Of a stretch of DNA of 64,000 nucleotides, positions 437 to 61,707 are shown piece after piece. The first letter of the stretch is position 1. Each line of letters begins with the position of its first letter. Made by a program: the position numbers and the translations under genes. This DNA is from an uncultured Candidatus Rokubacteria bacterium (GTDB lineage: Bacteria; Methylomirabilota; Methylomirabilia; Rokubacteriales; DASRDR01). Below the pieces are notes generated by a model that had not been told where the DNA came from, made no database searches, and worked only from the letters and a program-made list of their open reading frames with translations. The stretch is taken from assembly GCA_963708025.1 (NCBI GenBank), contig CAVPSB010000025.1, positions 418,054 to 482,053 on the forward strand. The letters run 5' to 3'.

Positions 437-439
437 GAA

Positions 440-26715: not shown

Positions 26716-27435
26716 TCAGCCGGCCCCGACCCGGGCGATCAGCCCCGGGATGGCGAAGTGCCGCTCCACGCGGGCCATGACGTACGCGATGACGACGCAG
26801 AGGCCCAGGTAGATGAGGGTGCCGGCGGTCAACGCCTCGATCGCGCGGGCGGTGTAGGTCTCGATCTGCCGGGTCTGGAACGTCAGCTCGGCCACGCTGA
26901 TGGTCAGCGCCACCGAGGAGTTCTTGAGGAGCGCCAGCGACTCGTTGGTGGCCGGCGGCACGATGAGCCGAAGGGCGATGGGCAGGATGACGAGCTGGTA
27001 GGCCTTGGGGACCGTCAGGCCCAGCGCCACCGACGCCTCGAACTGGGTCCGGGGGATCGAGAGGATGCCCGAGCGGATGACCTCCGAGAAGCGGGCACCG
27101 TGATACACGCCCAGCGCGACCGTCCCCGCCCAGAACTCGGCGCTGTGGTCGAAGAGCCAGGCCTGGACGGCCTGGGGCAGGAGCGGGGGGACGCCGAAGT
27201 ACCAGAAGAACATCCAGACCAGCAGGGGGACATTGCGGAAGAACTCGACGTAGAAGACCGCCATGGCCCGGAGCGGCTTGAACGGCACCGTCCGCATCGC
27301 CCCTGAGAGGACGCCGAGCGTCACCGCCAGCAGCCAGGCCAGGGCCGACATGGCCAGGGTCGTGAGCAGGCCCTGGAGCAGCCAGCCCCCCGACTGGCCG
27401 CTCCAGAGCACGCTCCAGTTGAACTGGTAGCTCAT
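26716..27435 (-). CDS. Polar amino-acid ABC permease (GltJ-like)
   Basis: EFFRNVPLLV, RSGILSIP and KNSS motifs. Confidence 0.93.
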   Translation of the reverse strand: MSYQFNWSVLWSGQSGGWLLQGLLTTLAMSALAWLLAVTLGVLSGAMRTVPFKPLRAMAVFYVEFFRNVPLLVWMFFWYFGVPPLLPQAVQAWLFDHSAEFWAGTVALGVYHGARFSEVIRSGILSIPRTQFEASVALGLTVPKAYQLVILPIALRLIVPPATNESLALLKNSSVALTISVAELTFQTRQIETYTARAIEALTAGTLIYLGLCVVIAYVMARVERHFAIPGLIARVGAG

Positions 27436-27485
27436 GCGCCTACCTTGAGGTCACGTTCCTTGAAGCGCCAAAGCCATGGCAGATG

Positions 27486-27627
27486 GGTTGAGCGCCCGGG
27501 GCGGGGTCGAGGAGCGAGCAGCGCTAGGACGCAGGGAGTCGCCGACCGCAGGCGTACTCCGAGTACGCCGAGGATCGGCGACGACCGAGGACGACGCGAT
27601 GCGACGCTCATCGGCCCCGCCCCAACC
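27486..27627. repeat. Intergenic long-hairpin repeat, family C, copy 1
   Basis: GAGCAGC.CTAGGACG and CCGAGGACGACG shared with 60407-60493; GGCGTAC..GTACGCCGAGG shared with the reverse complement of 39185-39216. Confidence 0.78.
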
Positions 27628-27629
27628 GG

Positions 27630-28484
27630 CTATTTCTTGATCTGAGACAGCAGGAACGCCTTCACGTCCGGGGTCAGCGGATAGGGCACCTCGCCCTTGG
27701 GGCCGAACCACTTGTCGTACAGCTCGAAGTACTTCCCCGACTCCAGGGCCTGCTTCAGGCCGGCGTCCACCACCTGCTGGAAGTCCGCCTCGCCCTTGCG
27801 CATGGCCATGCCGTAGGGTTCCCGCGAGTAGAAGTCGCCGACGACCTCCCAGTCGTCCGGCTTCGGGGCCTTGGCCTTGAGGCCGGCGAGCTGGATGCCG
27901 TCGTTGGTGTAGGCGTCGACCTGGCCCTGGACCATCGCCTGGAACGCCGAGGGCTGGTCGGGGAACTCGCGGAGGTTGGCGGTCGGCACCTTCTCGCGGA
28001 TGATCTTCGCGTTGGTGGAGCCCTGCTGGGCGGCGATCCGCTTGCCGGCGACGGAGTCGATGCCCTTGATCGGGCTGCCCTTCTTGACCAGGAACTGGGC
28101 GCCGGTGAGGAAGAAGGTGAGGCTGAAATCGACGCTCTGGCGTCGCTCCGGGGTGTCGGTCATGGTGCCGGCGATGAGGTCGACCGCGTTCGACGTCAGC
28201 AGCGGGATGCGGGTGGCCGGCGCCGACTCCTTCTTCTCGACCTTGACGGGCTTGCCGAGCTTCTTCGAGATCGCCGGCGCCACCGCCTGCTCGACCAGGT
28301 CGATCGTGAAGCCGACCCACTCGTTGCTCTTGTTGATGTACGCGAACGGCGGCGAGCCGGTCCGGGTGCCGATCGTCAGCGTGCCCGTGCGGCCGATCTT
28401 CTCGAGCGTCGTCTCGGCGAAGGCGGGGGTGGCCAGCGGCAGCGCAACCGCCAGCGCGACGAGGATCGACAGGACTCGCTTCAT
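27630..28484 (-). CDS. Polar amino-acid ABC substrate-binding protein (GltI-like)
   Basis: Signal peptide; TRIPLL, T.TPER, VDFS and EPYGM motifs. Confidence 0.92.
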   Translation of the reverse strand: MKRVLSILVALAVALPLATPAFAETTLEKIGRTGTLTIGTRTGSPPFAYINKSNEWVGFTIDLVEQAVAPAISKKLGKPVKVEKKESAPATRIPLLTSNAVDLIAGTMTDTPERRQSVDFSLTFFLTGAQFLVKKGSPIKGIDSVAGKRIAAQQGSTNAKIIREKVPTANLREFPDQPSAFQAMVQGQVDAYTNDGIQLAGLKAKAPKPDDWEVVGDFYSREPYGMAMRKGEADFQQVVDAGLKQALESGKYFELYDKWFGPKGEVPYPLTPDVKAFLLSQIKK

Positions 28485-28496
28485 CGTGGCCTCCAT

Positions 28497-29237: not shown

Positions 29238-29256
29238 CGGTCGCTCCCTTCCCTGG

Positions 29257-32200
29257 TCAGGCGGCCAGGCGCGCGCGCACCTTGGCCAGTGCGCGACCGC
29301 CGTCGGCCGGCTTGCCGGCGAGGATGCCGCGGGTCAGGGACTCCAGTGCCGTCTCGATCTCGTGGATCGCGTCCAGCTCCTTCTTGGCCCCCACGCCCGC
29401 GGCCCGGATCTGCTCCCGCACCCCGGCGGCGCCCGACTGGCGCTCCGCCTCGAGGTAGGCGGCGAGGACGTCGGCGATGCCGGCCGCGGACGCCGCCATC
29501 ACGCGGGTCAGGAAGGTGACGCCGGCCTGGTTGACCACGTGGTTCACCGCGGCGGTGGCCGCGATCTCGCGCCGGAGCGCGTGCTCGGGAAAGTGCTCGG
29601 CGAAGCGCTCGCGGAGCCCTCGGGGGAAGTAGCCGTCCAGGAAGGGTCGGGCCACCGGGCGGTCCGGGAAGTCGGTCTCCATGACCCGGGTGAAGGCGTG
29701 CAGCTTGGTGTGGCCGAGGAGCACGGCCAGGAGCGGCCGGGGCAGCCCCCGGGCCCGCTCGGGGCTCGCCAGCAGCTCCTCCCGGGACGGCACCGCGTCG
29801 TCGGCGCGGCTCAGGACACCGGCCGCCACCAGCTCGTCGACGAACGCCACGAACTCCTCGTAGCGGTCGGCGCTGCGCCGCCCGTCGAGCGTGAGGGCCA
29901 GGGCCTGGCTGGCATTGTCGGCGAGCACGAGCGCGGCCACCTCCTCGGTCAGCCCGGCCAGGATCCGGTTCCGCTCCTCCCGGCCGCCGAGGACGCCCTT
30001 CTTCACGAGGAGGTCCAGCAGGATCTTGATGTTCACCTCGTGGTCGGACAGGTCGACGCCGCCCGAGTTGTCCACCGCGTCCGTGTTGATGAGCCCGCCC
30101 CGGGCCCAGTACGCGAGCCGTCCCTTCTGCGTGAAGCCGAGGTTCCCGCCCTCGGCCACGACCCGGGCCCGCACGTCGCCGCCGTTGACGCGCACCCGGT
30201 CGTTGGCGCGGTCCCCGACTGCCCCGTCGTCCTCGCCGGCGGCCTTGACGTAGGTCCCGATGCCGCCGTTGTAGAGGAGGTCGACGCGCGCGGTGAGGAT
30301 GTGGCGGATGACCTCCTCGCCGCTCGCGCTCTCCCCCTCGAGATCCAGGAGCCGCCGCATCTCGGGGCTCAGCGGGATGGCCTTGGCCGTGCGATCGAAG
30401 ACGCCGCCCCCCCGGCTGATCAGGGCCGGGTCGTAGTCGCGCCAGCTCGAGCGCGGGAGGCGGAAGAGCCGCTCCCGCTCCCGGTAGCTCACCTCGGGAT
30501 CGGGGTCGGGGTCGACGAAGATGTGGACGTGGTTGAAGGCGGCGACCAGCTTCATGGCGCGGCTCTGGAGGGCGCCGTTGCCGAACACGTCGCCGGCCAT
30601 GTCGCCGATGCCGACCGCCGTGAACGGCTCCCGCCCGACGTCCAGGCCGAGGTTCCGGAAGTGGTGCTCGACGCACTTCCACGCCCCGCGCGCGGTGATC
30701 CCGACCTTCTTGTGGTCGTAGCCCACGCTCCCGCCGGAGGCGAAGGCGTCCCCCAGCCAGAAGCCGTACTGTGCGGAGACGCGGTTCGCGGTGTCGGAGA
30801 GGTGCGCCGTCCCCTTGTCGGCCGCCACCACCAGGTACGGGTCGTCGCCGTCGTGGCGGACGACCTCGGGGGGATGGACGATGCGGCCGTCCACGACGTT
30901 GTCGGTCACGTCGAGGAGCCCGGAGACGAACTCCCGGTAGCGATCGATCAGATACGCGTCGAGGGCGGGGCGCGCGGGCACCTGCCCCTTGAGGACGAAG
31001 CCGCCCTTGGCCCCGACCGGCACGATGATCGCGTTCTTCACCATCTGGGTCTTCATCAGACCCAGGACCTCCGTCCGGAAGTCGTCCGTGGCGGTCGCTC
31101 CAGCGGATGCCGCCCCGGGCCACGCGGCCTCCCCGGAGGTGGATGCCCTCCAGCAGCCGGGAGTGGACGTAGATCTCGACCAGCGGCCGCGGCGAGGGCA
31201 GGCCGTCCAGCTTGCGGCTGTCCAGCTTGATGGCGACGACCGGCCGCTCCGGCCGCTGGTAGAAGTTCGTCCGCAGGGAGCATCGGATCAGGTTGTCGAG
31301 CGCCCGCAGCACCTCGTCCTCGGCCAGGCTCTGAACGGACTCCAGCGCGGCCCGCAGGCCCTTCTTGCTCTCGGCGATGGCCGCCGCCCGGTCGCCGGGC
31401 AGGTCCGGGTCGAAGCGCGCGGCGAACGCGCCGAAGAGCGCCGCCGCCACCGCGCTGTTGCGGAGCAGCACGCCGTTGACGGTCTCCACGTTGTAGTAGG
31501 GCCGGATCTGAAGCAGGTGGTTCCGGAGCGTCCGCAGGACCTCCACCTCGCGCCAGGCCAGGCCGGCGCGGAGGATGAGGCCGTTCAGGCGGTCGTCGGT
31601 GGCCCGACGCTCGTCGAGCGCCCGGAGCGCCTTCCAGAACCGGTGCTCGCCGGCCCGGAGGGCGGCGATCCGCTCGGGCGGCGCCTCGACCTCGAGGCGG
31701 TACAGGAAGCCCCGGCGACCTTCGGGCAGGGTCAGGGGAATGCGCAGCTCCTCGGTGACGGTGAGCCCGAGGTTCTGGAGGGTGCGGAGGGTGTCGGTGA
31801 GCGCGCAGGGCCCGGATCGAGTAGAGCTTGAGGGTGACGACCTCCGCGCTGCGCGGGACGAGGGAGAGCTCGAGCCGTCCCTCGAGCCGCTCCAGGCGCT
31901 CGATGTCCTCCGGCACCTCCTCGGGCGGCGTCGACTCCCGGTAGAGTCCGCTCCGGCTCTCCGACCGGACGTAGCGGCTGAAGAGCCGCCGGCCCTCGCG
32001 CTCGCCGAAGGCGCCCTCCAGGACGGCCGCCACCCGGTCCTCCCAGGTCGTGACCAGCGACCGGGTGATCCGGCGGACGGCCTCGACCTCGACGGGGTGC
32101 TCGAGCCGCCCGGCGTCGAAGTAGGCGAGCAGCACGGTCACCGCCCCGCAGTCGGCCGAGGTGCTGAACGAGACGGGACCGAAGGCCTCGGCCAGGGCCT

Positions 32201-33551
32201 GGCCCAGGTCGGCCTCGGTCTTGACGGAGTAGCGCAGGCGCGAGAAGGCGACGTAGAGGGTGACGTACCCCGAGCCCCGGCGGCTGTAGACCGCGATCTC
32301 GTCGTCGGCGGTCAGGGAGACGATGCGGTCGATGATCTCCTTCAGGCTCCCGACGTCGGCGTAGAACAGCTCCCGCTCGCGGCAAGCGGTTGAAGAGCGC
32401 CCGGATCTCGCGGTAGGCGTACGAGTTGGGCAGGGCGCCGCTCTCGGCCAGGAGCGCAGTCGTGCTTCTCGCTGGAGCAGCGGGATCTCCGACGCCTTCT
32501 CGGTGAAGGCCCCCTTGGCGAGGCGGCCCAGGAGCAGCGTCGCCTCCACCAGGCTCCCGTCCGGGCCCCACTCGCGGACCACGATGTCGTCGATCGGCTC
32601 GAGGTGGTAGATGGCGGAGGCGTTGTTGCAGTAGTCGATGTCGATGATCCGGTCGTCGTCGGCGGCGGGCGCGATGTGGCCCTCCACCTCTTCCAGGAGA
32701 CCGGGGAACACCACGGGCAGGAGCGCCGGATCGGTGAAGACGCCGGTGGCGCTCTCGTGGACGCGGTCGGGCGTGCCGTCGGGCCGGAGGCGGTACCGGA
32801 CCGTTCCCATGAAGATGTAGTTGTCGTCGAGGAGCCACTCCAGGAAGGCGCGGGCGGCCTGCGCCTCGGCCGGCCGGCCCCGGCGGCTCGCCAGACGCGG
32901 GCCGAGGTCGCGGACGGCGTCCGCACCATCGCCCGGAAGTCCTCGACGGCCGTGAAGACGCACTTCAGCACCGAGTAGATCTCGTGCTCGATCCGGCGGA
33001 GCCGCTCCTTCGAGTCCACCCGCTCGATCTGGAAGTGGCAGTAGCACTCCTTGGCCCCCTCGTCGTGGGGGCCGCCGATCCCCACGATCCGTCTCCCACT
33101 GCCGCCGCACGGTCGACGATGGGGTGGATCGCGGCGAAGACCCGGAGCCCGGCCTTCTGGAAGTAGTTCTTGAGGCTGTCGAAGATGAACGGGGCGTCGC
33201 TGCGTGTGGGTCTCGACGATCGTGGTCTCGAGCGGGAGGTCGGCCCCCTCGCCCACCGCCCGGGCCTCGGCCTCGCTCGGGTTCCGGGCCCAGACGTGGA
33301 TGCCCGGCAGGCCCTTGTAGAGCTGGTAGGCAGGGGGCATCTCCCGGGCCACGAAGCGGAAGTGGTCCAGGAGCCGGGCGGCCAGGGCCGCCGGGTTCAG
33401 GCGGAGGGCGAGTCGGTCGGGCATCTCGGCGAAGACCACCGGCGCGCAGCGAGAGGACCAGGTCCCGGTCCTCGGGCGCCGCCTGGATCTTCAGCAGGTC
33501 GGTCAGCTCCGCGAGGCGGGCTGCCCGCTGCTGAGGGTCAGCCGTCTGCAT
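29257..33551 (-). CDS. Large NAD-specific glutamate dehydrogenase, several frameshifts
   Basis: GGRVARGGIRWSDR, KNAIIVPVGAKGGF, DPYLVVAADKGTA, GYDHK, EGGNLG and DNSGGVD motifs. Confidence 0.9.
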
Positions 33552-34638: not shown

Positions 34639-34642
34639 GATT

Positions 34643-34716
34643 TTCGGGACCTCCCTCCCACCCCCCCAGCCCCCCTCCCCCTCCCACTGGGGGGAGGGGG
34701 GAGCCGGAGGCTCCGC
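34643..34716. repeat. Intergenic palindromic repeat, family B, copy 2
   Basis: TTCGGGACCTCCC.CCCACCCCCCC shared with 59364; arms shared with 24160. Confidence 0.8.
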
Positions 34717-36171: not shown

Positions 36172-36275
36172 CCCGCTCTTCCGCGCATCATCAGCACGCC
36201 AGCCGCCGCTCTCCCCGCAACCCATCCGCTCTTGCCTCACGGCCAAATGTCAGGGGCTCTGATTCCTGACACCCT

Positions 36276-36379
36276 CGGCTTCTCCGAGCCCTTCGGCTTT
36301 GGCCACGCGGCCGTGGCGTTCCACGTCGAGCCGCGGCTTCCGCGGAGGGCATCGGGTCTTCCGAGACCCCCCGAGGATC
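36276..36379. repeat. Intergenic palindromic repeat, family A, copy 2
   Basis: Matches 298-436. Confidence 0.8.
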
Positions 36380-38277: not shown

Positions 38278-39062
38278 AGATCCTGGTCCTGGTCAAGCAG
38301 GTCCCGGACACCGCCACCCAGGTGAAGGTGGCGACGGACCCGCGGCGCATCGATCCGACCGGCATCACTTGGATCGTCTCCCCCTACGACGAGTTCGCGC
38401 TCGAGGAGGCGCTTCGGATCAAGGAGAAGCGCGGCCCGGCGGCGGCGGTCGAGGTGGTCGCGGTGACCGTCGGACCGGACCGGGCGAAGGAAGCGCTGCG
38501 CTCCTGCCTGGCCATGGGCGCCGACCGCGCCATCCACGTCAACGACCCGCTGTTCGAGACGGCCGACACGCTGGCCGGGGCTCGTGCGCTGGCCGCGGTG
38601 GCGAAGCTCGAGCAGCCGCAACTCGTCCTGGCCGGGCGTCAGGCGATCGACGACGACATGGGCGCCGTCGGCGCGCAGGTGGCAGAGCTGCTCGGCTGGC
38701 CCTGCCTGTCCTGGATCATGGAAGAGGCGATCGCCGAGGACGCCTCGAAGGTCCGCGCCGGCCGCCAGGTCGAGGGCGGCCTCGAGGTCTTCGAGCTGCC
38801 GCTCCCGTGTGTCCTGAGCGCCCAGAAGGGGCTGAACGAGCCGCGGTACCCGACGCTCAAGGGCATCATGGGCGCCAAGAAGAAGGAGATCAAGGACCTG
38901 AAGGCCGCGGATCTCGGGCTTGGCGAGGTCACCCGCGAGCTGGAAGTGGTCGCGCTGGAGGCGCTGCCCCCCCGGCCGCCGGGGCGCATCCTGACCGGCG
39001 AGCCGAAGGACATGGCCCGCGAGCTGGTGCGCGCTCTGCGCGAAGACGTGAAGGCCATCTAG
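38274..39062 (+). CDS. etfB: Electron transfer flavoprotein beta subunit
   Basis: MKILVLVKQVPD, PYDEFALEEA, GRQAIDDD and NEPRY motifs. Confidence 0.95.
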   Translation: MKILVLVKQVPDTATQVKVATDPRRIDPTGITWIVSPYDEFALEEALRIKEKRGPAAAVEVVAVTVGPDRAKEALRSCLAMGADRAIHVNDPLFETADTLAGARALAAVAKLEQPQLVLAGRQAIDDDMGAVGAQVAELLGWPCLSWIMEEAIAEDASKVRAGRQVEGGLEVFELPLPCVLSAQKGLNEPRYPTLKGIMGAKKKEIKDLKAADLGLGEVTRELEVVALEALPPRPPGRILTGEPKDMARELVRALREDVKAI

Positions 39063-39098
39063 CGCCGTGCCGATAACCTTCGCAATCTCCATCTCGGT

Positions 39099-39300
39099 CG
39101 GGACGCGCTCGGCCTGCGTCGATCGGACGGCCTTCGGCCTGGGGGCGTCAGCCCCGGCCTATGGTCGTCCTCGGCCCGCGCCCATCCTCGGCGTACCAGG
39201 GCGTACGCCTCCGGTGGGCGCGGGCCTGCGTCGATTGGACGGCCTGCGGCCTGGGGCGGACGGCCTTCGGCCTGCGGGGGCTGCTCGGTTCTCGGCCCGG
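39099..39300. repeat. Composite palindromic repeat (family C/D modules)
   Basis: GGGCTGCTCGGTTCTCGGCC is the reverse complement of 60419-60438; CCTCGGCGTAC..GTACGCC module; GGGACGCGCTCGGCCT as at 44261. Confidence 0.78.
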
Positions 39301-39333
39301 CGCCGTACCAATCTTTCTCCATAGGAGACGGGA

Positions 39334-41498: not shown

Positions 41499-41506
41499 GG
41501 GGACGC

Positions 41507-43774: not shown

Positions 43775-44203
43775 GTGCCGACACCGGCGGCCGCCGACTG
43801 CGTCTTCTGCAAGATCCGGGACGGCCAGATCCCCTCGACCCGGATCTACGAGGACGAGCGGACGCTCGCTTTCATGGACATCAATCCGGTCAGCGAGGGG
43901 CACTGTCTGGTCGTGACCCGGGCCCACGCCCCGACCCTGTTCGACACCGCCGAGGTCGATCTCCAGGCTGCGATCGCGACGGCCCGGCGCGTCGCGACCG
44001 CGCTCCGGGCCGCCCTGGCGCCCGACGGGCTCAACATGCTCCAGGCCAACGGCGCCGCTGCCTTCCAGTCCGTGCCCCACTTCCACCTCCACCTGATCCC
44101 CCGCTGGACCGGCGACGGGAAGGGGTTCGACTGGAAGCTCGTGGCCGGGGATCGGGCGCGGATCCAGGCCGCGGCCGAGAAGATCCGGACGGCGCTGGCG
44201 TGA
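43775..44203 (+). CDS. HIT family protein
   Basis: CVFC and HFHLH motifs. Confidence 0.93.
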   Translation: MPTPAAADCVFCKIRDGQIPSTRIYEDERTLAFMDINPVSEGHCLVVTRAHAPTLFDTAEVDLQAAIATARRVATALRAALAPDGLNMLQANGAAAFQSVPHFHLHLIPRWTGDGKGFDWKLVAGDRARIQAAAEKIRTALA

Positions 44204-44228
44204 CCGAGCGGAAGATCCGCAACTGTCC

Positions 44229-44335
44229 GACAGGGGGGGAGTCCCAACTTTCGGGTCGCCGGGACGCGCTCGGCCTACGGCCTCGCGTGCGTCCCGCCCT
44301 CACGGTGGTCCCCCCCTGGACCCCCCCACCTGGGG
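44229..44335. repeat. Intergenic palindromic repeat with family D module
   Basis: TCGCCGGGACG..CTCGGCCTACGGCCTCGCG..CGTCCCG.CCTC.CGGTGG shared with 59412-59464. Confidence 0.78.
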
Positions 44336-44358
44336 GCCGACGCTCGAAGAGCTGACCC

Positions 44359-44769
44359 ATGGCCACCGAGCGGAAAATTCGGGTCCTCGTCGCCAAGCCC
44401 GGCCTGGATGGTCACGACCGCGGCGCCAAGATCGTGGCCCGCGCGCTGCGAGATGCCGGCATGGAAGTGATCTACACCGGCCTCCACCAGACCCCCGAGC
44501 AGGTCGTGGCGACCGCCCTCCAGGAGGACGTGGACGCCGTCGGGCTCTCGGTGCTGTCCGGCGCCCACATGTACCTCTTTGGTCGGATCCTCGAGCTGCT
44601 GCGGGAGAAGGGCGTGGACGACGTGGTCGTCTTCGGGGGCGGCATCATCCCGCCGGAGGACGTCGAGCGGCTCAAGGCGATGGGGGTCAAGGAGCTGTTC
44701 ACCCCCGGGACGTCCACCCAGCAGATCGTGGGATTCGTCCGGGACCACGTCCGCCCCGTCCGGACATGA
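44359..44769 (+). CDS. Cobalamin-binding small subunit of acyl-CoA mutase (IcmB-like)
   Basis: [10 protein letters not shown] (DxHxxG), GLSVLSG and GGGIIP motifs. Confidence 0.93.
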
Positions 44770-44780
44770 CGGACGCCCGA

Positions 44781-44806
44781 TCCCTCTCCTCCCCGGGAGG
44801 AGAGGG
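44781..44806. repeat. Short REP-like hairpin
   Basis: CCCTCTCCTCCC-C-GGGAGGAGAGGG inverted repeat. Confidence 0.7.
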
Positions 44807-44851
44807 TCTGGGTGCCGGCTCTCCGGAAGGGAGCGGTCAGAGCGGCCCCCG

Positions 44852-46677: not shown

Positions 46678-46743
46678 GTGGGGTCAGGCCTTTCAATCTC
46701 AACAATCTGGCGACATTGACCGAATGAAAGGCCTGACCCCCGG

Positions 46744-52324: not shown

Positions 52325-52372
52325 ATTCCGGGGATCATGAAGTTCAACGTGGTCATCCAGAGGAGGCGGGTC

Positions 52373-53563
52373 ATGGGCAGGGTCGCTCGATCGCTGAGGG
52401 TGATGCTGGGCGCAACGCTCCCGGCCATCGCCATCGTCCTCGCCCTGGGCACCCCGTCGTTTGCCGCCCCGGACAAGGACGTCTGCAGGGCAGTGCCGAC
52501 GGATGCCACGGACGTCCAGTACCTGGCGGACTGGATCGCCGGGCTCCAGTACGACAACCCCGAGCTTTCCAGCTACGGCGCGATCACGATCCACCACACG
52601 CCTGCCTTCATCGATGCGGCCGGCTTCGCGTACTTCGACGTGGTCCCCTACACCGTCAACCTGGCGATCACGGGCCTCCTCGGGACGGACGTGCCCGGGA
52701 AGCTCGCCGTCGCCCAGAACTGGATTCGCTGGTACCTCGGTCATCTCAATCCGGACGGCTCCATCTCCAACTACTGGTACCAGGCCGACGGGTCGGCGGA
52801 GCGGACGTGCCTCTTGCCCGGCAACTATTTCCTGTGCGACTACGCCGATGCCGCCGACACCACCGCCGCCACGTTCCTGGGGATGGTCTGGGCGTACCAC
52901 GAGGCGGGCGGCGACGCCACGTTCCTCAAGGACAACCGGACATCGATCGAGAAGATCGGCGGGCTCGTCCTTTCCCTGCAGCAGAAGGACGGGCTCACCT
53001 GGGCCGCGGACAGCGTTCGCGTGAAGTTTCTCATGAACAACAGCGAGGTCTACTGGGGCCTCCGGGCGATGGCCAGCCTCGAGCACGAGCTCTTCAGCAA
53101 TCAGCAGGCCGGAGTCTACAACGACGCCGCGGAACGGGTGCGGCGTGGGATCGACAAGTCGCTCTACAACCAGCGGGCCCGGCTCTACCGGGTCGCGCAG
53201 TACGAATACGGGGCGACGCTGGAGGCCGATCTCGACCAGTGGTACGAGGGAACGGTGACGCTGGCATGGCCTTCCCTGTTCGGCGTGATCTCCGCGAGCT
53301 CGGACCGGGCCCGGCAGCAGATGGCCGCGCTGAACGGGAGCTGGGACGGCAATCTCAACCCCGACTGGACGGTGGACGTGGCCGACCCGACTGGGTTCCT
53401 CTGGCCGTCCATCGGGCATGCGGCCCTGCTGAGCGGCGACTGCGCCCGCGCCCGGACCCACGCGACGTTCGTCAAGGCCCAGAAGTTCCCGAGCATGGAT
53501 TGGCCCTGGACCGTGGAAGACGCCGGGTGGCTCCTGCAAACGCTGAGCGGCTTCGGGAAATGA
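52373..53563 (+). CDS. Secreted protein of unknown function, possible (alpha/alpha)6 six-hairpin fold, paralog 1
   Basis: GAGGAGG RBS; signal peptide ending SFA-A; rich in W/Y/D; DAADTTAATFL and KFLMNNSEVYWGL motifs; fold is inferred. Confidence 0.8.
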   Translation: MGRVARSLRVMLGATLPAIAIVLALGTPSFAAPDKDVCRAVPTDATDVQYLADWIAGLQYDNPELSSYGAITIHHTPAFIDAAGFAYFDVVPYTVNLAITGLLGTDVPGKLAVAQNWIRWYLGHLNPDGSISNYWYQADGSAERTCLLPGNYFLCDYADAADTTAATFLGMVWAYHEAGGDATFLKDNRTSIEKIGGLVLSLQQKDGLTWAADSVRVKFLMNNSEVYWGLRAMASLEHELFSNQQAGVYNDAAERVRRGIDKSLYNQRARLYRVAQYEYGATLEADLDQWYEGTVTLAWPSLFGVISASSDRARQQMAALNGSWDGNLNPDWTVDVADPTGFLWPSIGHAALLSGDCARARTHATFVKAQKFPSMDWPWTVEDAGWLLQTLSGFGK

Positions 53564-53997: not shown

Positions 53998-54046
53998 TAA
54001 GCACCGGCTAGAAATCTCAAGCTCAGTCATCCAGAGGAGGCAGGTC

Positions 54047-55231
54047 ATGGGCAGGTTCGCTCGATCGCTGAGGCGGATGGTGGGCGCGACGCTCCCGGCC
54101 ATCGCCATCGTCCTCGCCCTGGGCACCCCGTCGTTCGCTGCCCCGAAGGACGTGTGCAAGGCAGAGCCGACGGACGCCAAGGACATCCAGTACCTGGCTG
54201 ACTGGATCGGCGGGCTCCAGTACGACAACCCCAAGCTTCCCAGCTACGGCGCGATCACGATCCACCACACGCCTGGCTTCGTCAACGCGGCCGGCTACGC
54301 GTATGACGTGGTGCCCTACAGCGCCAACCTGGCGATCGCCGGGCTCCTGCAGACGGACGTGCCCGGGAAGCTCGCCATTGCCCAGAACTGGATCCGCTGG
54401 TACCTGAGTCATCTCAATCCGGACGGGTCCGTCTACAACACCTGGTACAGTGCCGACGGGTCGGGGGAGCGGACGTGCCTCGTGAAGGGCGACCAGTTCC
54501 TGTGCGACTACGCCGACGCCGCCGACACCACCGCCGCCACGTTCCTCGGAATGCTCTGGGCGTACCACCAGGAGGGCGGCGACGCCAAGTTCCTCCGGGA
54601 GTACCAGAAGTCGATCGAGAAGGTCGCCGGTCTCGTCCTCTCCCTGCAGCAGAAGGACGGGCTGACCTGGGCCTCGGAGAGCGTTCGCCTGAAGCTCCTG
54701 ATGAACAACAGCGAGGTCTACTGGGGCCTCCGGGCGATGGCCGACCTCGAGCGCGCGCTCTTCGACAAGAAGCAGGCCCGGCGGTACGACGCCGCCGCCT
54801 CCAAGGTCCGGCACGGGGTCAACGAGTCGCTGTACAACCGCCGCGCCCGGCTGTACCGGGTGGCGGAGTACGAGAACGGGACGATGCTGGAGGCCGATCT
54901 CGACCAGTGGTACGAGGGGACGGTGACGCTGGCGTGGCCTCACCTGTTCGGCGTGATCGACGAGCACTCGCGCCGGGCCAAGCAGCAGATGGACGCGATC
55001 AACGGGAGCTGGGACGGCAAGCCGAACCCCGACTGGACGGTGGCCGTTGCCGACCCGGACGGGTTCCTCTGGCCCTCCATCGGGCACGCCGCCCTGCTGA
55101 CGGGTGACTGCGCGCGAGCCCGGACCCACGCGAACTTCGTCAAGGCCAAGAAGTTCCCGAACATGGACTGGCCCTGGACCGTGGAAGACGCCGGGTGGCT
55201 CCTGCAGACCCTGAGCGGCTTCAAGAAGTAA
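54047..55231 (+). CDS. Secreted protein of unknown function, paralog 2
   Basis: Collinear with 52373-53563 with long identical stretches; same RBS context. Confidence 0.8.
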   Translation: MGRFARSLRRMVGATLPAIAIVLALGTPSFAAPKDVCKAEPTDAKDIQYLADWIGGLQYDNPKLPSYGAITIHHTPGFVNAAGYAYDVVPYSANLAIAGLLQTDVPGKLAIAQNWIRWYLSHLNPDGSVYNTWYSADGSGERTCLVKGDQFLCDYADAADTTAATFLGMLWAYHQEGGDAKFLREYQKSIEKVAGLVLSLQQKDGLTWASESVRLKLLMNNSEVYWGLRAMADLERALFDKKQARRYDAAASKVRHGVNESLYNRRARLYRVAEYENGTMLEADLDQWYEGTVTLAWPHLFGVIDEHSRRAKQQMDAINGSWDGKPNPDWTVAVADPDGFLWPSIGHAALLTGDCARARTHANFVKAKKFPNMDWPWTVEDAGWLLQTLSGFKK

Positions 55232-55283
55232 CCTCAGCACGCGATACTCGCCAGCCCGTTCTGGCTGGCTGGAGGGTGGTGAC

Positions 55284-55316
55284 ACCGGGGGGATCCGATC
55301 CCCCCGGTTGCTTTTT
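55284..55316 (+). terminator. Intrinsic terminator
   Basis: ACCGGGGGGAT-loop-ATCCCCCCGGT followed by TGCTTTTT. Confidence 0.65.
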
Positions 55317-57141: not shown

Positions 57142-57177
57142 CCCGGCGGTCTCGTCAAGGTTCTTGAAGCGTCAACG

Positions 57178-59358
57178 TCATGGCAGATGAGTCGAGTTCT
57201 CGGGGCGAGCCCGGATTTCCCTCACCTCCGCCTCCGACCGCCAGACCTGGTCGCCCGGGACGTAGCTGGCGTCCTTCCAGAGGGCGAAGTCGGGGAACGC
57301 CTCGTCCCAGGCCACCACGCCGATGTAGGAGCCGACGTTGGCCTGGTGGTCGACCGCGCGGATGAAGCGCCCGGGCCCCCGGAGGGAATCCAGGTCGAGA
57401 CCCTCCAGTGCGTCCACGACGGCCTCGGTGTCGAAGGTGCCCGCCTTGCCCACCGCCTTGGCCCAGACCATCACGGCGTCGTAGGCGCTGATCGCCCAGG
57501 CCGAGGGGTACTTGTTGGTGGCGGCGCCGTAGGCCTGGACAAAGGCCTCGAAGCGCGGGCTCGGCGCCAGGCGGCGGATGACGTGGAAGAACCCCCGGTC
57601 GTAACCGATGACCCCCTCCACCGCCTCCTGGCCAAGCCGCTGGAGCACCTCGACGTCGTAGATCGCCGCGAAGGCCATCCGCTGGAAGAGACCGTGCGCC
57701 CGCGCCTGGCGGGTGAATGCCACCAGGTCCTCGCCGTAGAGGTTCGAGAAGACGGCGTCGGGTCGGGCCGCCAGGATGGCCGTGATCTGGGAGCTGAAGT
57801 CGGTCTCGCCCAGCTTGGGCCACAGCCGCCCGACGACCTCCACCTCGGGCGTCTCGACCCGGAGCCGCCGCTCGAACGCTTCCGCCTGGACGTGCCCCAG
57901 CTCGTAGTCGGGGCCCAGGATCATGTACCGCCGGTACGGCCGGGTCGCCAGGTACCGCGCCACGGCGCCCCCCTCGATGAAGGTGTTCGGCACCACCGAG
58001 AAGAGGTAGCGGTGGCCCCGCTCCACGAAGGCCCGCTCGGTGTTCGCGGTGTGCGAGATCAGGATCGTCTTGTGGTCCCTCGCCACGTCCGACATCGCCA
58101 GCAGCACGGCGCTGGAGACCGGGCCCAGGACCATCGCCACCTCGTCACCCTGGATCGTGTCCCGAACCTCTTGAGCCCCGACGTCCGGCTGGCCTTCGTC
58201 GTCCCGGACGACCAGCTCGACCCGACGGCCGAGGACGCCGCCGGCCGCGTTCACGTCGGCGACCGCCAGCCGGGCCCCTTCGATCCCCGCGTGACCGAGG
58301 AGCGCCAGGGGCCCGGTGGCGCTCGTCACCGCGGCCAGCTTCACGACTTTCCGGGGGGCCGGGGGCTCGACGACTACCGACAGGTTGAGCCGGAGCGGGC
58401 GCGTGAACAGGCGGCTCACCTCGCCCACGATGCCCCGCCGGAAGGTGAGGACGCAGAGGACGAAGATCGCCCCCTGGACCACCGTCACCCACGCCCCGAG
58501 CTGGGCCAGGTAGTTCTCCAGCGCCACCACGAAGAGGGCGCCGACGACCGGCCCGAACACGGTGCCGAGTCCCCCCAGCAGCGTCATCAGCACGACCTCG
58601 CCCGACATGGTCCAGTGGACGTCGGTGAGCGAGGCGAGCTGGAAGACGAGCGCCTTGGTGGCGCCGGCCAGCCCGGACAGGGTCGCCGACAGCACGAAGG
58701 CGATCAACTTGTACTGGTCGGTCCGGTAGCCGAGCGAGATCGCGCGCGGCTCGTTCTCCCGGATCGCCTTCAGGACCTGGCCCATCGGCGAATGGATGGC
58801 GCGGTAGATCAGCAGGAACCCGGCCAGGAAGATCGCCAGGACCACGAAGTACAGCGTCAGGGTGTCGCCGAGGTCGAGGAGCCCGAACAGTCGGCCGCGC
58901 GGGACCGACTGGATGCCATCCTCGCCGCCGGTGAGCGGGGCCTGGAGGCAGAAGAAGTAGAGCATCTGCGCGAGGGCCAGGGTGACCATCGCGAAGTAGA
59001 TCCCCTGGCGGCGGATGGCCAGGGCGCCGATGACCACGCCGAGGGCGCCGGCCACCGCGGTGCCGAAGAGGATGGCCAGCTCCGGGGTCAGCCCCCAGAC
59101 CTTGGCCGCGTACGCGGAGCCGTAGCCCGCGGAGCCGAGGAACGCCGCATGGCCGAATGAGAGGAGGCCGACGTAGCCGATCAGCAGGTTGAAGGCGCAA
59201 GCGAAGAGGGCGAAGCAGAGAGCCTTCATCAGGAAGACCGGATAGACGACGAAGGGAGCGAGGACGAAGAAGACGACCATCGCCCCGAAGGCGACCCACT
59301 GGGAGCTCAGGGTCGCCGGCCGGACGACGGCATCGAGCCGCTCCCGGGCGCTTGCCAT
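57178..59358 (-). CDS. LivM-type permease fused to a C-terminal LivJ/AmiC-like binding domain
   Basis: GLLSFGHA, TGGEDG, AIRENE, FRRGIVG, followed in frame by NAAGGVLGR.VE...RDD, GPVSS and DYELG motifs. Confidence 0.85.
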   Translation of the reverse strand: MASARERLDAVVRPATLSSQWVAFGAMVVFFVLAPFVVYPVFLMKALCFALFACAFNLLIGYVGLLSFGHAAFLGSAGYGSAYAAKVWGLTPELAILFGTAVAGALGVVIGALAIRRQGIYFAMVTLALAQMLYFFCLQAPLTGGEDGIQSVPRGRLFGLLDLGDTLTLYFVVLAIFLAGFLLIYRAIHSPMGQVLKAIRENEPRAISLGYRTDQYKLIAFVLSATLSGLAGATKALVFQLASLTDVHWTMSGEVVLMTLLGGLGTVFGPVVGALFVVALENYLAQLGAWVTVVQGAIFVLCVLTFRRGIVGEVSRLFTRPLRLNLSVVVEPPAPRKVVKLAAVTSATGPLALLGHAGIEGARLAVADVNAAGGVLGRRVELVVRDDEGQPDVGAQEVRDTIQGDEVAMVLGPVSSAVLLAMSDVARDHKTILISHTANTERAFVERGHRYLFSVVPNTFIEGGAVARYLATRPYRRYMILGPDYELGHVQAEAFERRLRVETPEVEVVGRLWPKLGETDFSSQITAILAARPDAVFSNLYGEDLVAFTRQARAHGLFQRMAFAAIYDVEVLQRLGQEAVEGVIGYDRGFFHVIRRLAPSPRFEAFVQAYGAATNKYPSAWAISAYDAVMVWAKAVGKAGTFDTEAVVDALEGLDLDSLRGPGRFIRAVDHQANVGSYIGVVAWDEAFPDFALWKDASYVPGDQVWRSEAEVREIRARPENSTHLP

Positions 59359-59363
59359 GTCAG

Positions 59364-59490
59364 TTCGGGACCTCCCGCCCACCCCCCCAACCCCCCTCCC
59401 GTTTGACGGGATCGCCGGGACGGCTCGGGCCTACGGCCCTCGCGACGTCCCGTCCCTCCGGTGGCCACCGGGGGGAGGGGGGTGCCGGAG
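59364..59490. repeat. Composite repeat: family B arms enclosing a family D module
   Basis: Arms match 34643-34716; core matches 44256-44308. Confidence 0.8.
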
Positions 59491-59512
59491 CAACTGATTC
59501 CTTCACGGGCTC

Positions 59513-60400
59513 TCAGGGCGCCCGGCCAAAGAGCCCGGCCGGCTTGACGAGGAGCACGAGGGCCATGATCACGAAAATCACCGTGTTGGAGGCTTCCGGG
59601 TAGAAGACCTTGGTCAGCCCCTCCACCAGCCCGAGCGCGAAGCCGGTCACGATCGAGCCCATGATCGACCCCATGCCGCCGATCACGACCACCGCGAAGA
59701 CGACGATGATGAGGTCGGCGCCCATCAGCGGATTGACCTGGTAGATCGGTGCCGCCATCACCCCGGCCAGGGCGGCCAGGCCGACCCCGAAGCCGTAGGT
59801 CAGCGTGATCATCCGGGGGACGTTGATGCCGAAGGCCTGGACCAGCGTCGGGTTCTCGGTGGCGGCCCGCAGGTAGGAGCCCAGCTTGGTCCGCTCGATG
59901 ACGTACCAGGTGCCGAGGCACACCGCCAGCGAGAAGACGACGACCCACGCCCGGTAGTTGGGCAGGACCATGAAGCCCAGGTTCCGGCCGCCGGTGAGCG
60001 CCGGCGGAATCGTGTACGGGAGCCCGGAGGAGCCGTACTCGTGGCGGAAGAGGCCCTGGATGACCAGGGCCAGCCCGAAGGTGAGCAGGAGCCCGTACAG
60101 GTGGTCGAGGCGATAGAGCCGCTTGAGCATGGTGCGCTCGAGGCCGATACCGAACAGGCCGATGACCAGGGGCACGATGACCAGGGCCCACCAGTAGCCC
60201 AGCCCGGCGTACTGGAGGAGGAAATACGCGGCGAAGGCGCCCATCATGTACTGGGCGCCGTGGGCGAAGTTGATGATGTTGAGCAGGCCGAAGATGACGG
60301 CCAGCCCCAGGCTGAGCATGGCGTAGAACGAGCCGTTGATCAGCCCGAGCAGGAGCTGGCCGAACAGGGCCTGCGTGGGGACCCCGAAGACCGTCGTCAT
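59513..60400 (-). CDS. Branched-chain amino-acid ABC permease (LivH-like)
   Basis: GLAVIFGLLNIINFAHG and VVVIGGMGS motifs. Confidence 0.93.
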   Translation of the reverse strand: MTTVFGVPTQALFGQLLLGLINGSFYAMLSLGLAVIFGLLNIINFAHGAQYMMGAFAAYFLLQYAGLGYWWALVIVPLVIGLFGIGLERTMLKRLYRLDHLYGLLLTFGLALVIQGLFRHEYGSSGLPYTIPPALTGGRNLGFMVLPNYRAWVVVFSLAVCLGTWYVIERTKLGSYLRAATENPTLVQAFGINVPRMITLTYGFGVGLAALAGVMAAPIYQVNPLMGADLIIVVFAVVVIGGMGSIMGSIVTGFALGLVEGLTKVFYPEASNTVIFVIMALVLLVKPAGLFGRAP

Positions 60401-60406
60401 CTGTCA

Positions 60407-60493
60407 GGTTGAGCCCGTGGCCGAGAACCGAGCAGCCCTAGGACGTAGGCGCGCGCCGAGGACGACGGGCTGCGACGGTTCTCGGCCACGGGA
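60407..60493. repeat. Intergenic long-hairpin repeat, family C
   Basis: Perfect 17-bp inverted repeat CCCGTGGCCGAGAACCG (60414-60430 / 60476-60492) enclosing the family C core. Confidence 0.82.
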
Positions 60494-60495
60494 CA

Positions 60496-61707
60496 TCACT
60501 TCTTGACCAGCGGGCAGTCTCCCTGGTCCAGCGGCCGGAAGGCCTGGGCGGCGGGGATGGTCGCCCGCAGCTTGTAGTAGTCCCAGGGCTTCTTCGACTC
60601 GTCCGGCTTCTTCACCTCGAACAGGTACATGTCGTGGATCTTGCGGCCGTCCGCGCGGATGGTTCCCTTGCCGAACAACGGGTCGTCGGTCGGCGTCTCC
60701 TTCATCTTGGCGATGACCTTCGTCCCGTCGTCGGTCTTGAGGGCCTCGACCGCCTTCAGGTAGTGGAGGAGCCCCGCGTAGACGCCGGCGTGGATCATGG
60801 TGGGATGGATGCCGCGGTTCCGCTCGGCGAAGCGCTTGGCGAACGCGCGCGTCTTGTCGTTCATGTCCCAGTAGAACGACTCGGTCATGATGAGGCCCTG
60901 GGCGGTCTGGAGCCCGAGGCCGTGGACGTCGGTGATGAAGACCAGCAGGCCGGCGAAGTTCTGGCCGCCCTTGGCGATCCCGAACTCGGCTCCCTGCTTG
61001 ATGGCGTTGGTCGTGTCGCCGCCGGCGTTGGCCAGGCCGATGATCTTGGCCTTGGAGGCCTGGGCCTGGAGGAGGAAGGAGGAGAAGTCGGCGGTGTTGA
61101 GCGGGTGGCGCACCTTGCCGACCACCTTGCCGCCGTTCTTCACGACGACCGCCTCGGTGTCGCGCTCCAGCGCGTGGCCGAAGGCGTAGTCGGCGGTGAG
61201 GAAGAACCAGCTGTCGCCGCCGGTCTTGACGATCGCGTTCCCGGTGCCGTTGGCCAGGGCCCAGGTGTCGTAGGTCCAGTGGACGGTGTTGGGCGAGCAG
61301 GCCTTGCCGGTGAGGTCGGAGGCCGCCGCGCCGGAGACGATGAAGGCCTTGCCCTTGTCCCGGGTGATCTGGTTGACCGCCAGGGCGACCGCCGAGTTGG
61401 GCACGTCGATGATCAGGTCCACCTTGTCGACGTCGTACCACTGCCGGGCGACGTTGGAGCCGACGTCGGCCTTGTTCTGGTGGTCGGCGAAGATGACCTC
61501 GACCTTGAGCCCCTTCTTGGCGGCGTCGAAGTCCTCGACCGCCATGCGGGCGGCCACCACCGAGCCCTGGCCGGTGAGGTCGGCGTACAGGCTCGACTGG
61601 TCGTTGAGGACCCCGACCTTGATCAGGCTGTCGGAGATCTGGGCGTGGACCGGGGCGGCCGTGACGATCAGGACCGCCAGCAGCGTCAGGATGCGGATGC
61701 TGCGCAT
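60496..61707 (-). CDS. Branched-chain amino-acid ABC substrate-binding protein
   Basis: Signal peptide; DHQNKAD and TADYAFG motifs. Confidence 0.93.
   Translation of the reverse strand: MRSIRILTLLAVLIVTAAPVHAQISDSLIKVGVLNDQSSLYADLTGQGSVVAARMAVEDFDAAKKGLKVEVIFADHQNKADVGSNVARQWYDVDKVDLIIDVPNSAVALAVNQITRDKGKAFIVSGAAASDLTGKACSPNTVHWTYDTWALANGTGNAIVKTGGDSWFFLTADYAFGHALERDTEAVVVKNGGKVVGKVRHPLNTADFSSFLLQAQASKAKIIGLANAGGDTTNAIKQGAEFGIAKGGQNFAGLLVFITDVHGLGLQTAQGLIMTESFYWDMNDKTRAFAKRFAERNRGIHPTMIHAGVYAGLLHYLKAVEALKTDDGTKVIAKMKETPTDDPLFGKGTIRADGRKIHDMYLFEVKKPDESKKPWDYYKLRATIPAAQAFRPLDQGDCPLVKK

Follow-up and report, generated by a model that had tools for sequence, protein, structure and literature searches.

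Six short open reading frames (mini-ORFs) that span hairpin repeats between operon genes were confirmed in the window, the whole 64,000-nucleotide stretch of DNA analysed here. They are probably a by-product of stop-flanked, non-autonomous palindromic repeat families of a REP/MITE-like kind, which are seated, mostly in sense orientation, on stop codons or stop-start junctions. The cause of the excess of bridging frames appears to be structural: the elements have a stop at both ends and a start inside the 5′ end, and the second stop lies at the ancestral stop-to-start distance. Directly seen in this regard are the end motifs, the positions of the starts, the orientation bias, the agreement of repeat family with stop codon, and the shortness of the ancestral etfB-etfA junction.

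Mini-ORFs and other repeat-bearing gaps in the window

The coordinates, lengths and junctions that the earlier note had claimed for the six mini-ORFs were all reproduced from the sequence (Table 1). Independent gene calling returned the same starts and stops for the neighbouring genes, whose identities in the window agree with Pfam, and the peptide stretches said to be shared between copies are present (RPRPAPILGV/RPRSSPILGV and RPAGAARFSA/RPRAARFSA). Three repeat families are designated T, P and Q. At the T-variant element of mini-ORF e, the etfB stop TAG occupies positions 39060-39062 and a second TAG positions 39322-39324, followed by the etfA ATG at 39334. Upstream of mini-ORF f the gene likewise stops with TAG, from which the element-borne ATG is separated by the 18 nt listed; the 3′ tail of this element is degenerate and appears to be read by mini-ORF f in a frame other than that of the T-family consensus. 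The element of mini-ORF d has a nested inner hairpin, and here the upstream TGA is followed 6 nt on by an element-borne GTG, while the TGA that ends the element lies 1 nt 5′ of the next start.

The earlier list of gaps was selective: its six bridged gaps stand, but three unbridged repeat-bearing gaps and a near-perfect hairpin (the co-oriented and hairpin rows of Table 1) had been left out. Overall, 6 of the 19 co-oriented gaps of at least 30 nt between confidently called genes in the window are bridged.

Table 1. Bridging mini-ORFs and other repeat-bearing features, in positions of the window
Feature	Position	Strand	Description
mini-ORF a	44766-44855	+	29 aa; ATGA at stop of B12-binding gene, GTGA at start of AMP-binding gene; low-copy hairpin gap
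mini-ORF b	60496-60404	-	30 aa; TGATG overlap; stop 3 nt 5′ of permease ATG; single T-variant hairpin 60401..60496
mini-ORF c	44200-44355	+	51 aa; overlaps HIT gene through GTGA; stop 3 nt 5′ of next ATG; P/Q-like composite element 44200..44358
mini-ORF d	59506-59360	-	48 aa; 6 nt after upstream stop, 1 nt before next start; P-family element 59359..59515
mini-ORF e	39067-39324	+	85 aa; 4 nt after etfB; TAG 9 nt before etfA ATG; composite T-variant element 39063..39333
mini-ORF f	27611-27432	-	59 aa; 18 nt after stop; ATGA overlap at end; T-family element 27432..27632
repeat-bearing co-oriented gap	259..439	-	130 repeat positions; unbridged
P-family element, co-oriented gap	24153..24244	-	no bridging ORF
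P-family element, reverse orientation	34639..34711	+	convergent gap, directly 3′ of TGA stop
repeat-bearing co-oriented gap	36172-36379		unbridged
near-perfect hairpin	46678..46743	+	between TAG stop and next ATG; z=-6.0; in-gap stops, unbridged

Some of these loci vary between strains. In contigs of four metagenome runs, 44 nt of the near-perfect hairpin are replaced by 3 letters (joint 46677>46722, sides 97-255 nt). Mini-ORF a carries a 3-nt GCG insertion at 44834 in contigs of three metagenome runs, and the sole between-strain indel seen inside a mini-ORF is one of 3 nt. The element of mini-ORF c, which crosses C7 and G7 homopolymers, has a poly-C length variant at 44320 among the contigs compared. 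Because the assembly carries single-base indels, frames read at single loci are unreliable, as are those across homopolymers.

Repeat families seated on stop codons

The genome (8.17 Mb, 71% GC, rated 99.67% complete), whose nearest relatives are Rokuibacteriota/Methylomirabilota MAGs, contains at least 1116 repeat loci of 35 nt or more, about 10% of which lie mostly within called genes. The elements are truly repeated, as had been claimed: when eight regions (a-h) were searched with blastn against the whole genome, regions d, e, f and c gave 564, 549, 381 and 120 matches, and the remaining ones 75 (b), 19 (h), 8 (a, core only) and 1 (g). The hairpins of the T type are significant (b, z=-7.9; e core, z=-5.3; f, z=-4.4): none of 200 shuffles reached an equally good fold. 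Region a gives a weaker signal (z=-2.35), matched by 2 of 200 shuffles. The poly-C/poly-G copies of the P type fold no better than their shuffles (c, z=-1.06; d, z=-1.25), since shuffling a sequence of such composition always yields about as good a fold. Elements occupy 585 of 1975 co-oriented gaps (30%), 98 of 273 convergent gaps (36%) and 20 of 323 divergent gaps (6%).

Each family repeats a stop-containing motif at both of its ends as a direct repeat, namely TAG...TAG in T, (C)TGA(G)...(C)TGA(G) in P and ATGA...ATGA in Q, and carries an NTG inside its conserved 5′ end (ATG 11-14 nt past the stop in T, GTG 6 nt past TGA in P, and the ATG of ATGA in Q). The stop codon of the upstream gene matches the family. 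Specifically, TAG terminates 120 of the 158 genes directly 5′ of a T 5′ arm, compared with 1656 of 5708 for all genes, and TGA terminates 86 of the 91 genes 5′ of a P 5′ end (3785 of 5708 for all genes). Of 327 T arms, 140 have a TAG 9-18 nt 5′ of their ATG; the base before this TAG is C in 80 arms, G in 45, T in 9 and A in 6. In P copies with TGA at both ends, C precedes the 5′ TGA in 54/73 and G follows the 3′ TGA in 52/73, against a background of 48% and 40%, respectively, for all TGA stops. In Q, ATGA or GTGA stands at the 5′ end of 12/12 copies and at the 3′ end of 11/12. Start codons in element-bearing gaps peak at fixed offsets past the stop (+4, 88; +6, 97; +12, 55; +14, 46; n=585), and no start-codon peaks of that kind were found in repeat-free gaps. 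Of 124 P copies, 108 share their strand with the gene upstream, as do 181 of 230 T copies, and most copies abut the upstream stop, not the downstream start.

The families differ in build. T carries long imperfect inverted arms and spans 117-361 nt from ATG to tail. In P the palindrome is internal and terminal inverted repeats are lacking; P spans cluster at 90-96, 113-116 and 133-136 nt, with lengths that differ by single bases, and P copies also stand in tandem arrays (27 adjacent pairs among 601 motif matches). Units of T and P measure 90-270 nt. It is Q that has exactly the architecture proposed in the earlier note, with ATGA at both ends, a span that is a multiple of 3 in 11/12 copies, and complete NTG..TGA ORFs in 10/12; 9/12 copies are of one length.

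At the etfB-etfA junction, six relatives have only 7-15 nt between stop and ATG, a short layout that the window's second etfB-etfA TAG, with its 9 nt and ATG, fits. In one relative (L022) this site is occupied by a shorter T-variant, bridged in the same frame as mini-ORF e, and another (L020) has a reversed element copy at the junction. The upstream copy of the stop motif would terminate the upstream gene, and the downstream copy would represent the ancestral stop position, a few nucleotides from the downstream start or overlapping it, so that the downstream gene would retain its own spacer and Shine-Dalgarno sequence. Since about half of the frames cross a gap stop-free at 71% GC, an element whose length is divisible by 3 creates an ORF reaching from one gene's stop to the start of the next. 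The repeated stop may be a target-site duplication. TAG, TGA(G) or ATGA stands as a direct repeat on either side of the units; no clean empty site was recovered. Alternatively, the stop repeat could belong to the element; no transposase able to make such duplications was identified. As RNA, the hairpins may act as REPs do, by protecting mRNA 3′ ends or by tuning within operons, and not via translation.

Bridging frequency and selection on the frame

Bridging on the sense strand lies above controls genome-wide, as the earlier note had predicted: among the 585 element-bearing co-oriented gaps, 117 are bridged under a loose and 87 under a strict criterion, that is, only 15-20%, leaving 468 without a bridging ORF. 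The antisense strand gives 12 and 7, a re-phased control (shift of 1-2 nt) about 59 and 41, and dinucleotide shuffles of a gap set that also held 98 convergent gaps 5.8-7.5%. However, repeat-free gaps have an equal twofold excess (162 of 1286 bridged vs about 85 re-phased), and in every class bridging exceeds the re-phased control about 1.7- to 2-fold, with 72 of 448 bridged vs 41.4 once Q and T are removed. Among the start-bearing ORFs that span the gap, 120 reach the downstream gene in its +1 frame, the one that ends at NTGA, vs 89 and 81 in the other frames (+1 vs +2, binomial p=0.007 if copies are taken to be independent); openness by itself is spread evenly over the frames (311, 301 and 296 of 585). 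In 70 gaps the ORF that begins at the upstream stop continues in frame into the gene downstream.

Tests for selection on the frame or on the peptide were mostly negative. The frame of P is at chance, with (3′ TGA minus 5′ TGA) mod 3 divided 46/36/42 among 124 copies, and also in operon context, with the next start at most 40 nt away (14/10/18 of 42). T is in frame in 21 of 38 copies, above one third (one-sided p=0.004), and this bias is independent of context (operon 8/16, other sense 9/16, not sense 4/6). Copies of a family are not independent, and therefore the count is only that two of three large families are in frame, which is no statistic. The suggestion that unbridged gaps are followed by strong ribosome-binding sites was not borne out, since strong Shine-Dalgarno motifs occur in 55/117 bridged vs 230/468 unbridged gaps (Fisher p=0.76); 197 of the 285 lie outside repeat sequence.

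Known systems and competing readings

The stop-bearing mobile repeats of this genome resemble mycobacterial MIRUs and REP elements in much of what is known of those. The original description of MIRUs is reportedly that of Supply and colleagues in 1997. According to a later review (PMC12548453), they are short operon repeats oriented with transcription, in which a small ORF overlaps the flanking stop and start (-4 spacing, ATGA), a layout thought to permit insertion with little effect on the downstream gene; the idea of a ribosome relay is already in print for them. Here, too, the elements lie in operon spacers, mainly in one orientation to transcription, and P forms tandem arrays. The MIRU layout of the ORF is found in Q and in mini-ORF a of the window but not in P (46/124 in frame), with T in between (21/38 in frame); 117/585 gaps are bridged overall. 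Unlike MIRUs, the elements belong to another phylum (Rokuibacteriota-like), are strongly palindromic and mosaic, and fall into several families, the largest of which (P) is not kept in frame, and most copies abut the upstream stop.

Likeness to REP/BIME elements lies in the high copy number, the GC-rich palindromes, the mosaic clusters and the location 3′ of genes, in co-oriented and convergent gaps and rarely in divergent ones. The TAG head of T, being the stop of the upstream gene, recalls GTAG-tagged REPs, which bear a conserved GTAG (or CGTC) at one end, although the tag is not a strict GTAG (C precedes it more often than G) and P and Q use TGA and ATGA; moreover, T and P units are longer than the 20-40 nt of REPs. 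The RAYT transposase (Y1 transposase, PF01797) had 0 matches in this almost complete genome, while the control search was positive in 6 of 14 reference genomes. REPs of E. coli near stop codons are reported to affect translation termination (Liang, Rudd and Deutscher, 2015), a stable hairpin a few nucleotides from a stop being able to act on the terminating ribosome; by this analogy, the elements here might tune the expression of the upstream gene in an alternative way.

Bacterial MITEs (Correia/NEMIS, ERIC, YPAL, RPE), as described in PMC2229807, are small and non-autonomous, form long stem-loop transcripts, commonly have TA-containing termini or duplications, and in many cases contain continuous open frames, which are described there as in-frame fusions into host genes. 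The six ORFs here, unlike those frames and RPE, stand alone between genes. The analogy with Rickettsia RPE made in the earlier note is weaker than that with MIRUs and fits only the 70 gaps in which the ORF enters the downstream gene.

Open frames are common at high GC, and the six cases could in principle be coincidences unconnected with the elements: stops make up about 1.8% of random codons (calculated from 71% GC), a mean of 1.29 of 3 frames per gap interior is stop-free (140/207/167/71 gaps with 0/1/2/3 open frames), and NTGA stands at about a third of gene ends (178/585 upstream stops, 215/585 downstream starts). Such pure chance is highly improbable, being contradicted by the rates in shuffles and on the antisense strand (1-2%) and by the conserved positions of start and stop codons within the elements. 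It is even more improbable that the mini-ORFs encode functional small peptides conserved as proteins. Peptide strings do recur across copies, but they do so because the DNA itself is repeated; moreover, all 117 bridging ORFs lack a positive dicodon score, their mean GC3 is 0.72-0.78 vs 0.956 in genes, no Pfam match was obtained for any of the six peptides, and the frame varies among copies (the tail of f, the single-base length differences of P).

The interpretation in the earlier note, that the repeats are tolerated because ribosomes read through them and re-initiate, passed its statistical test but lacks support as a general rule: most element-bearing operon gaps have no bridge, the frame of P is at chance even beside a downstream start, the bias of T ignores context, downstream Shine-Dalgarno motifs are equally strong with or without a bridge, and repeat-free gaps show the same excess. 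A MIRU-like relay is possible for some families. In it, the terminating ribosome would restart at the adjacent NTG, unwind the hairpin and end at or next to the downstream start, so that coupling survives insertion, and frame-keeping families or copies, being less harmful, would persist. The sense-strand excess over the re-phased and antisense controls, the arrival-frame bias, the architecture of Q, the in-frame excess of T, the L022 copy, the 3-nt indel in mini-ORF a, the orientation of P and T copies and the precedent in print (PMC12548453) argue for it; the points that tell against the general rule, together with the unreliability of frames across homopolymers in the assembly, make it the less likely reading by some distance. 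Observations that run against the by-product reading are the persistence of the excess in every class, the +1 arrival frame, the in-frame excess of T and Q, the shared frame at the L022 junction and the length of the only between-strain indel.

Somewhat more doubtful again, several unrelated families of this uncultured, high-GC phylum may have converged on an operon-compatible relay design: stops at both ends, a start codon close behind the first of them, a length divisible by 3 and, in some cases, a Shine-Dalgarno-like GGGAGG near the 3′ end. If so, selfish DNA would have a general, MIRU-like route into operons with tight coupling, and the ratios of the proteins within an operon could be tuned in this way.

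Bridging mini-ORFs and the repeats that they cross

The earlier note described six palindromic intergenic elements (a-f), each crossed by a short open reading frame (ORF), and proposed that ribosomes melt the repeats by translating these bridging mini-ORFs and then re-initiate downstream. At the level of description its account is accurate: the coordinates, lengths and overlaps of all six mini-ORFs were reproduced, the peptide stretches common to different copies were found as given, an independent gene model picks the same starts and stops at all six junctions (6/6), and Pfam identifies the neighbouring genes (ETF beta, ETF alpha, HIT, B12-binding, AMP-binding, BPD_transp_2, Peripla_BP_6, SBP_bac_3 and BPD_transp_1). 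Its list of elements holds for these six cases and is selective, as three unbridged gaps that also bear repeats are missing from it. In the window, 6 of the 19 co-oriented gaps of at least 30 nt are bridged.

Features of the window, with blastn matches in the genome and folding relative to shuffled sequences (z)
Feature	Coordinates	Strand	Family	Matches	z
Mini-ORF a	44766-44855	+		8	-2.35 (marginal)
Mini-ORF b	60496-60404	-	T	75	-7.9
Mini-ORF c	44200-44355	+		120	-0.9 to -1.25
Mini-ORF d	59506-59360	-	P	564	-0.9 to -1.25
Mini-ORF e	39067-39324	+	T	549	-5.3 (core)
Mini-ORF f	27611-27432	-	T	381	-4.4
Region h				19	
Unlisted unbridged gap	259-439				
Unlisted unbridged gap	24153-24244		P		-0.9 to -1.25
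Unlisted unbridged gap	36172-36379				
Reversed P copy	34639-34711		P		
Near-perfect hairpin	46678-46743				-6.0
Acyl-CoA dehydrogenase frameshift	40848-40856				
Acyl-CoA dehydrogenase frameshift	47233-47242				
Methylmalonyl-CoA mutase ORF	40352-43177				
831-aa ORF	31056-33551	-			
726-aa ORF	57178-59358	-			
Similar neighbouring gene	52373-53563				
Similar neighbouring gene	54047-55231				

Apart from the unbridged gap g, for which blastn finds only g itself, the regions searched belong to real repeats of this genome. Defining repeat loci by 16-mers that occur at least 10 times yields 1116 loci of at least 35 nt (102,660 nt in total), of which 729 are related to four of the window elements and about 10% lie mostly within called genes. 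K-mer assembly and anchored listings of copies reveal mosaic families in which small hairpin modules are nested within larger ones. Family T has long imperfect inverted arms; the 5′ arm holds an ATG and usually follows a TAG, and many copies carry a 3′ tail of about 45 nt with a TAG at its end. Family P starts directly after a TGA and continues with a GTG 6 nt on, a C-rich/G-rich hairpin and a terminal TGA; in tandem arrays, adjoining units have one stop motif in common. Both termini of family Q carry ATGA. On the sense strand of P (59360-59420 and 24153-24200, both on the minus strand, and copies genome-wide) there are at least four closely spaced G-runs of G5-G7, which could form a G-quadruplex in the mRNA directly upstream of the next start, and a GGGAGG located 12-14 nt ahead of the terminal TGA could serve as a Shine-Dalgarno motif.

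The T-type copies and the hairpin at 46678-46743 fold far better than their shuffled counterparts. For c, d and 24153-24244, which are poly-C/poly-G elements, folding is no better than for shuffles, because their composition folds well in any arrangement. No Rfam family matched the window at the gathering score. The hairpin at 46678-46743, situated between a TAG stop and the following ATG, is an insertion/deletion polymorphism among related strains: contigs of 4/4 metagenome runs have 3 letters in place of its first 44 nt (46678-46721). The joint (46677>46722) in these contigs is not a clean empty site. Contigs from three metagenome runs carry a 3-nt insertion within mini-ORF a. At elements c and e the metagenome contigs are interrupted, and the strain comparison disregards joints within e whose sides measure only 22-26 nt.

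Probable insertion at stop codons

The junction between etfB and etfA offers a view of how a bridging ORF may arise. In six relatives only 7-15 nt, with a GGAG-like motif in between, separate the etfB stop from the etfA ATG. A shorter T-variant occupies the same site in one relative (L022), a reversed T-like copy is found in another (L020), and three others have unrelated hairpin inserts; the junction is therefore a recurrent insertion site. Mini-ORF e of the window ends in a TAG which, together with a 9-nt spacer and the ATG, looks like the ancestral etfB-etfA junction, and etfB itself now stops at another TAG, on the upstream side of the element. Specifically, a repeat would insert at a stop codon and duplicate it, the upstream copy of the stop then ending the upstream gene, while the original stop, spacer and start would persist downstream of the element. 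This would yield the observed proximity of mini-ORF ends to downstream starts; as an NTG sits inside the 5′ end of the element, just after the upstream stop, it would open the mini-ORF there.

Genome-wide, the families are matched to particular stop codons. TAG terminates 120 of the 158 genes preceding a T arm (29% genome-wide) and TGA 86 of the 91 genes preceding a P end (66% genome-wide). In P copies, C stands ahead of the 5′ TGA in 54/73 and G behind the 3′ TGA in 52/73, and Q copies show NTGA at the 5′ end in 12/12 and at the 3′ end in 11/12. Start codons following a stop peak at +4, +6, +12 and +14 in element gaps only. Most copies are oriented with transcription (108/124 for P, 181/230 for T), and elements are present in 30% of the gaps between co-oriented genes, in 36% of the convergent gaps and in only 6% of the divergent ones. 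REPs are likewise common in co-oriented and convergent gaps and rare in divergent ones; in GTAG REPs, whose distribution downstream of genes has been described, the termini supply TAG stops (PMC3733652), and open frames in MITEs have been treated in a review (PMC2229807).

The elements belong to a known kind of repeat, of which they constitute new families. Nothing on repeats of this type in Rokubacteria came up in our literature searches, and no Y1/RAYT transposase was found in a search of this genome (99.67% complete). Family P has 180 matches here and essentially none in 30 relatives, many of them fragmented assemblies, where single matches with 2 mismatches occur in 4 genomes; an exact scan of genome-collection contigs for the P 3′ end gave no match. 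T-arm variants reach up to 15 copies in relatives.

Bridging frequency and reading frame

Bridging was scored under the strict rule of the earlier note (ORF start within 10 nt of the upstream stop and ORF stop within 10 nt of the downstream start) and under a looser one (18 and 10 nt) that admits all six window cases. Among 585 element-bearing co-oriented gaps, 87 are bridged under the strict rule and 117 under the loose one, compared with 7 and 12 on the antisense strand and about 41 and 59 when the gap is re-phased by a 1 or 2 nt shift at its middle. Dinucleotide shuffles of the gap interior gave 5.8% and 7.5%, for a gap set that includes 98 convergent gaps. The anticipated excess over controls is thus real, at about twice the control rate, but four in five element gaps are unbridged. 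In the 1286 gaps free of repeats the ratio is the same (132 vs about 67 under the strict rule, 162 vs about 85 under the loose one). By class, bridged gaps compare with the re-phased control as 9/15 vs 3.2 for Q-like elements, 36/122 vs 14.7 for T and 72/448 vs 41.4 for the rest.

Could the sense-strand excess consist of uncalled real genes? In repeat-free gaps this holds partly: 24 of the 162 bridging ORFs have GC3 of at least 0.9, and Pfam confirms examples such as an ORF with a KOW domain and the C-terminal 47 residues of a PHO4 transporter; real genes, whole or in pieces, thus make up part of the excess. For element gaps the explanation fails, since none of the 117 bridging ORFs has a positive coding score or a GC3 of 0.9. 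Conditioning on the gene caller's start can account for the excess at most partially, as openness is uniform over frames (stop-free passage in 311/301/296 of 585).

If the ORFs were themselves translated, the elements would resemble MIRUs, in which, as set out in a 2025 review, a small ORF in the repeat is coupled, at -4, with the gene found where the repeat inserted, making insertion little harmful (PMC12548453). Such a relay would be expected to show in the frame. In P the distance between the two TGAs modulo 3 (0/1/2) is 46/36/42 of 124 copies, or 14/10/18 of the 42 with the next start within 40 nt; lengths vary by single bases in homopolymers, and the distribution is that of chance. The T arm ATG and tail TAG are in frame in 21/38 copies (one-sided p=0.004), in operons (8/16) as in other sense (9/16) and non-sense (4/6) contexts; the bias belongs to the family, not to the context. 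Q is in frame in 11/12 copies, 9 of which are of one length. Where an ORF with a start codon spans the whole gap, it reaches the downstream gene in that gene's +1 frame in 120 cases and in the other two frames in 89 and 81 (p=0.007, +1 vs +2). A residual frame signal thus exists that is not fully explained, in copies that are non-independent within families and come from only three large families. Strong Shine-Dalgarno motifs precede the downstream gene equally often in bridged (55/117), unbridged (230/468) and repeat-free gaps (621/1286), and 88/285 lie within repeat sequence. A MIRU-like relay may operate in some families, though with low probability. With moderate confidence, the best reading of the bridging ORFs is that they result where repeats flanked by stops and carrying a start have inserted at the stop codons of a GC-rich genome.

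As a separate observation, in 70 co-oriented element gaps an ORF whose start lies close to the upstream stop passes through the element, without meeting a stop, in the frame of the downstream gene; these could be repeat-encoded N-terminal extensions, similar to RPEs, or miscalled starts.

Reliability of frames and implications

The assembly comprises 8,166,589 bases in 49 contigs (the window being C25:418054-482053), with 71.2% GC, a completeness of 99.67% and a contamination of 8.18%. The nearest EtfA relatives in the genome collection belong to MAGs titled Candidatus Rokuibacteriota or Methylomirabilota (71-91% identity), and RNA runs contained a fraction of 0.05-0.08 of the sampled words. 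A purpose-written dicodon model with start-codon and Shine-Dalgarno terms called 6296 genes spanning only 73.6% of the genome, probably because of single-base frameshifts and changes of GC3 frame. Two acyl-CoA dehydrogenase paralogues in the window each carry a frameshift, at one and the same position of the Pfam model (Acyl-CoA_dh_M 47/48), and the bases at 40853 and 47235 are absent from contigs of 4/4 and 3/4 metagenome runs, respectively (soil or unnamed; four studies). Single-base insertions are thus present, in the assembly or in this strain, amounting to 2 per 8.9 kb; the two cases are likely either assembly errors or strain-specific pseudogenes. Any single frame across a C7 or G7 run is consequently doubtful, and frame-based claims require polished assemblies.

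The frameshift in the first dehydrogenase makes it read as an in-frame fusion with a methylmalonyl-CoA mutase ORF. The 831-aa ORF, with several GC3 frame changes and GDH_HM2 as its sole Pfam match, resembles a large glutamate dehydrogenase gene that additional frameshifts have interrupted. The 726-aa ORF joins BPD_transp_2 (residues 43-302) to Peripla_BP_6 (residues 339-682) and could be either a genuine fusion or an artefact of the assembly. Stretches 86-93% identical (52352-52936 vs 54026-54604) in two neighbouring genes point to a recent tandem duplication.

If the bridging ORFs are a by-product of insertion, this accounts for the hundreds of spurious small ORFs that gene callers will produce from genomes of this type. 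A relay, if true, would mean that translational coupling limits where mobile repeats settle and what shape they take, and would carry the MIRU concept beyond mycobacteria into an uncultured phylum far removed from them. The match between family and stop codon (TAG for T, TGA for P and ATGA for Q) provides a simple rule for the build-up of repeats where genes end, TA-containing sites being rare in this genome.
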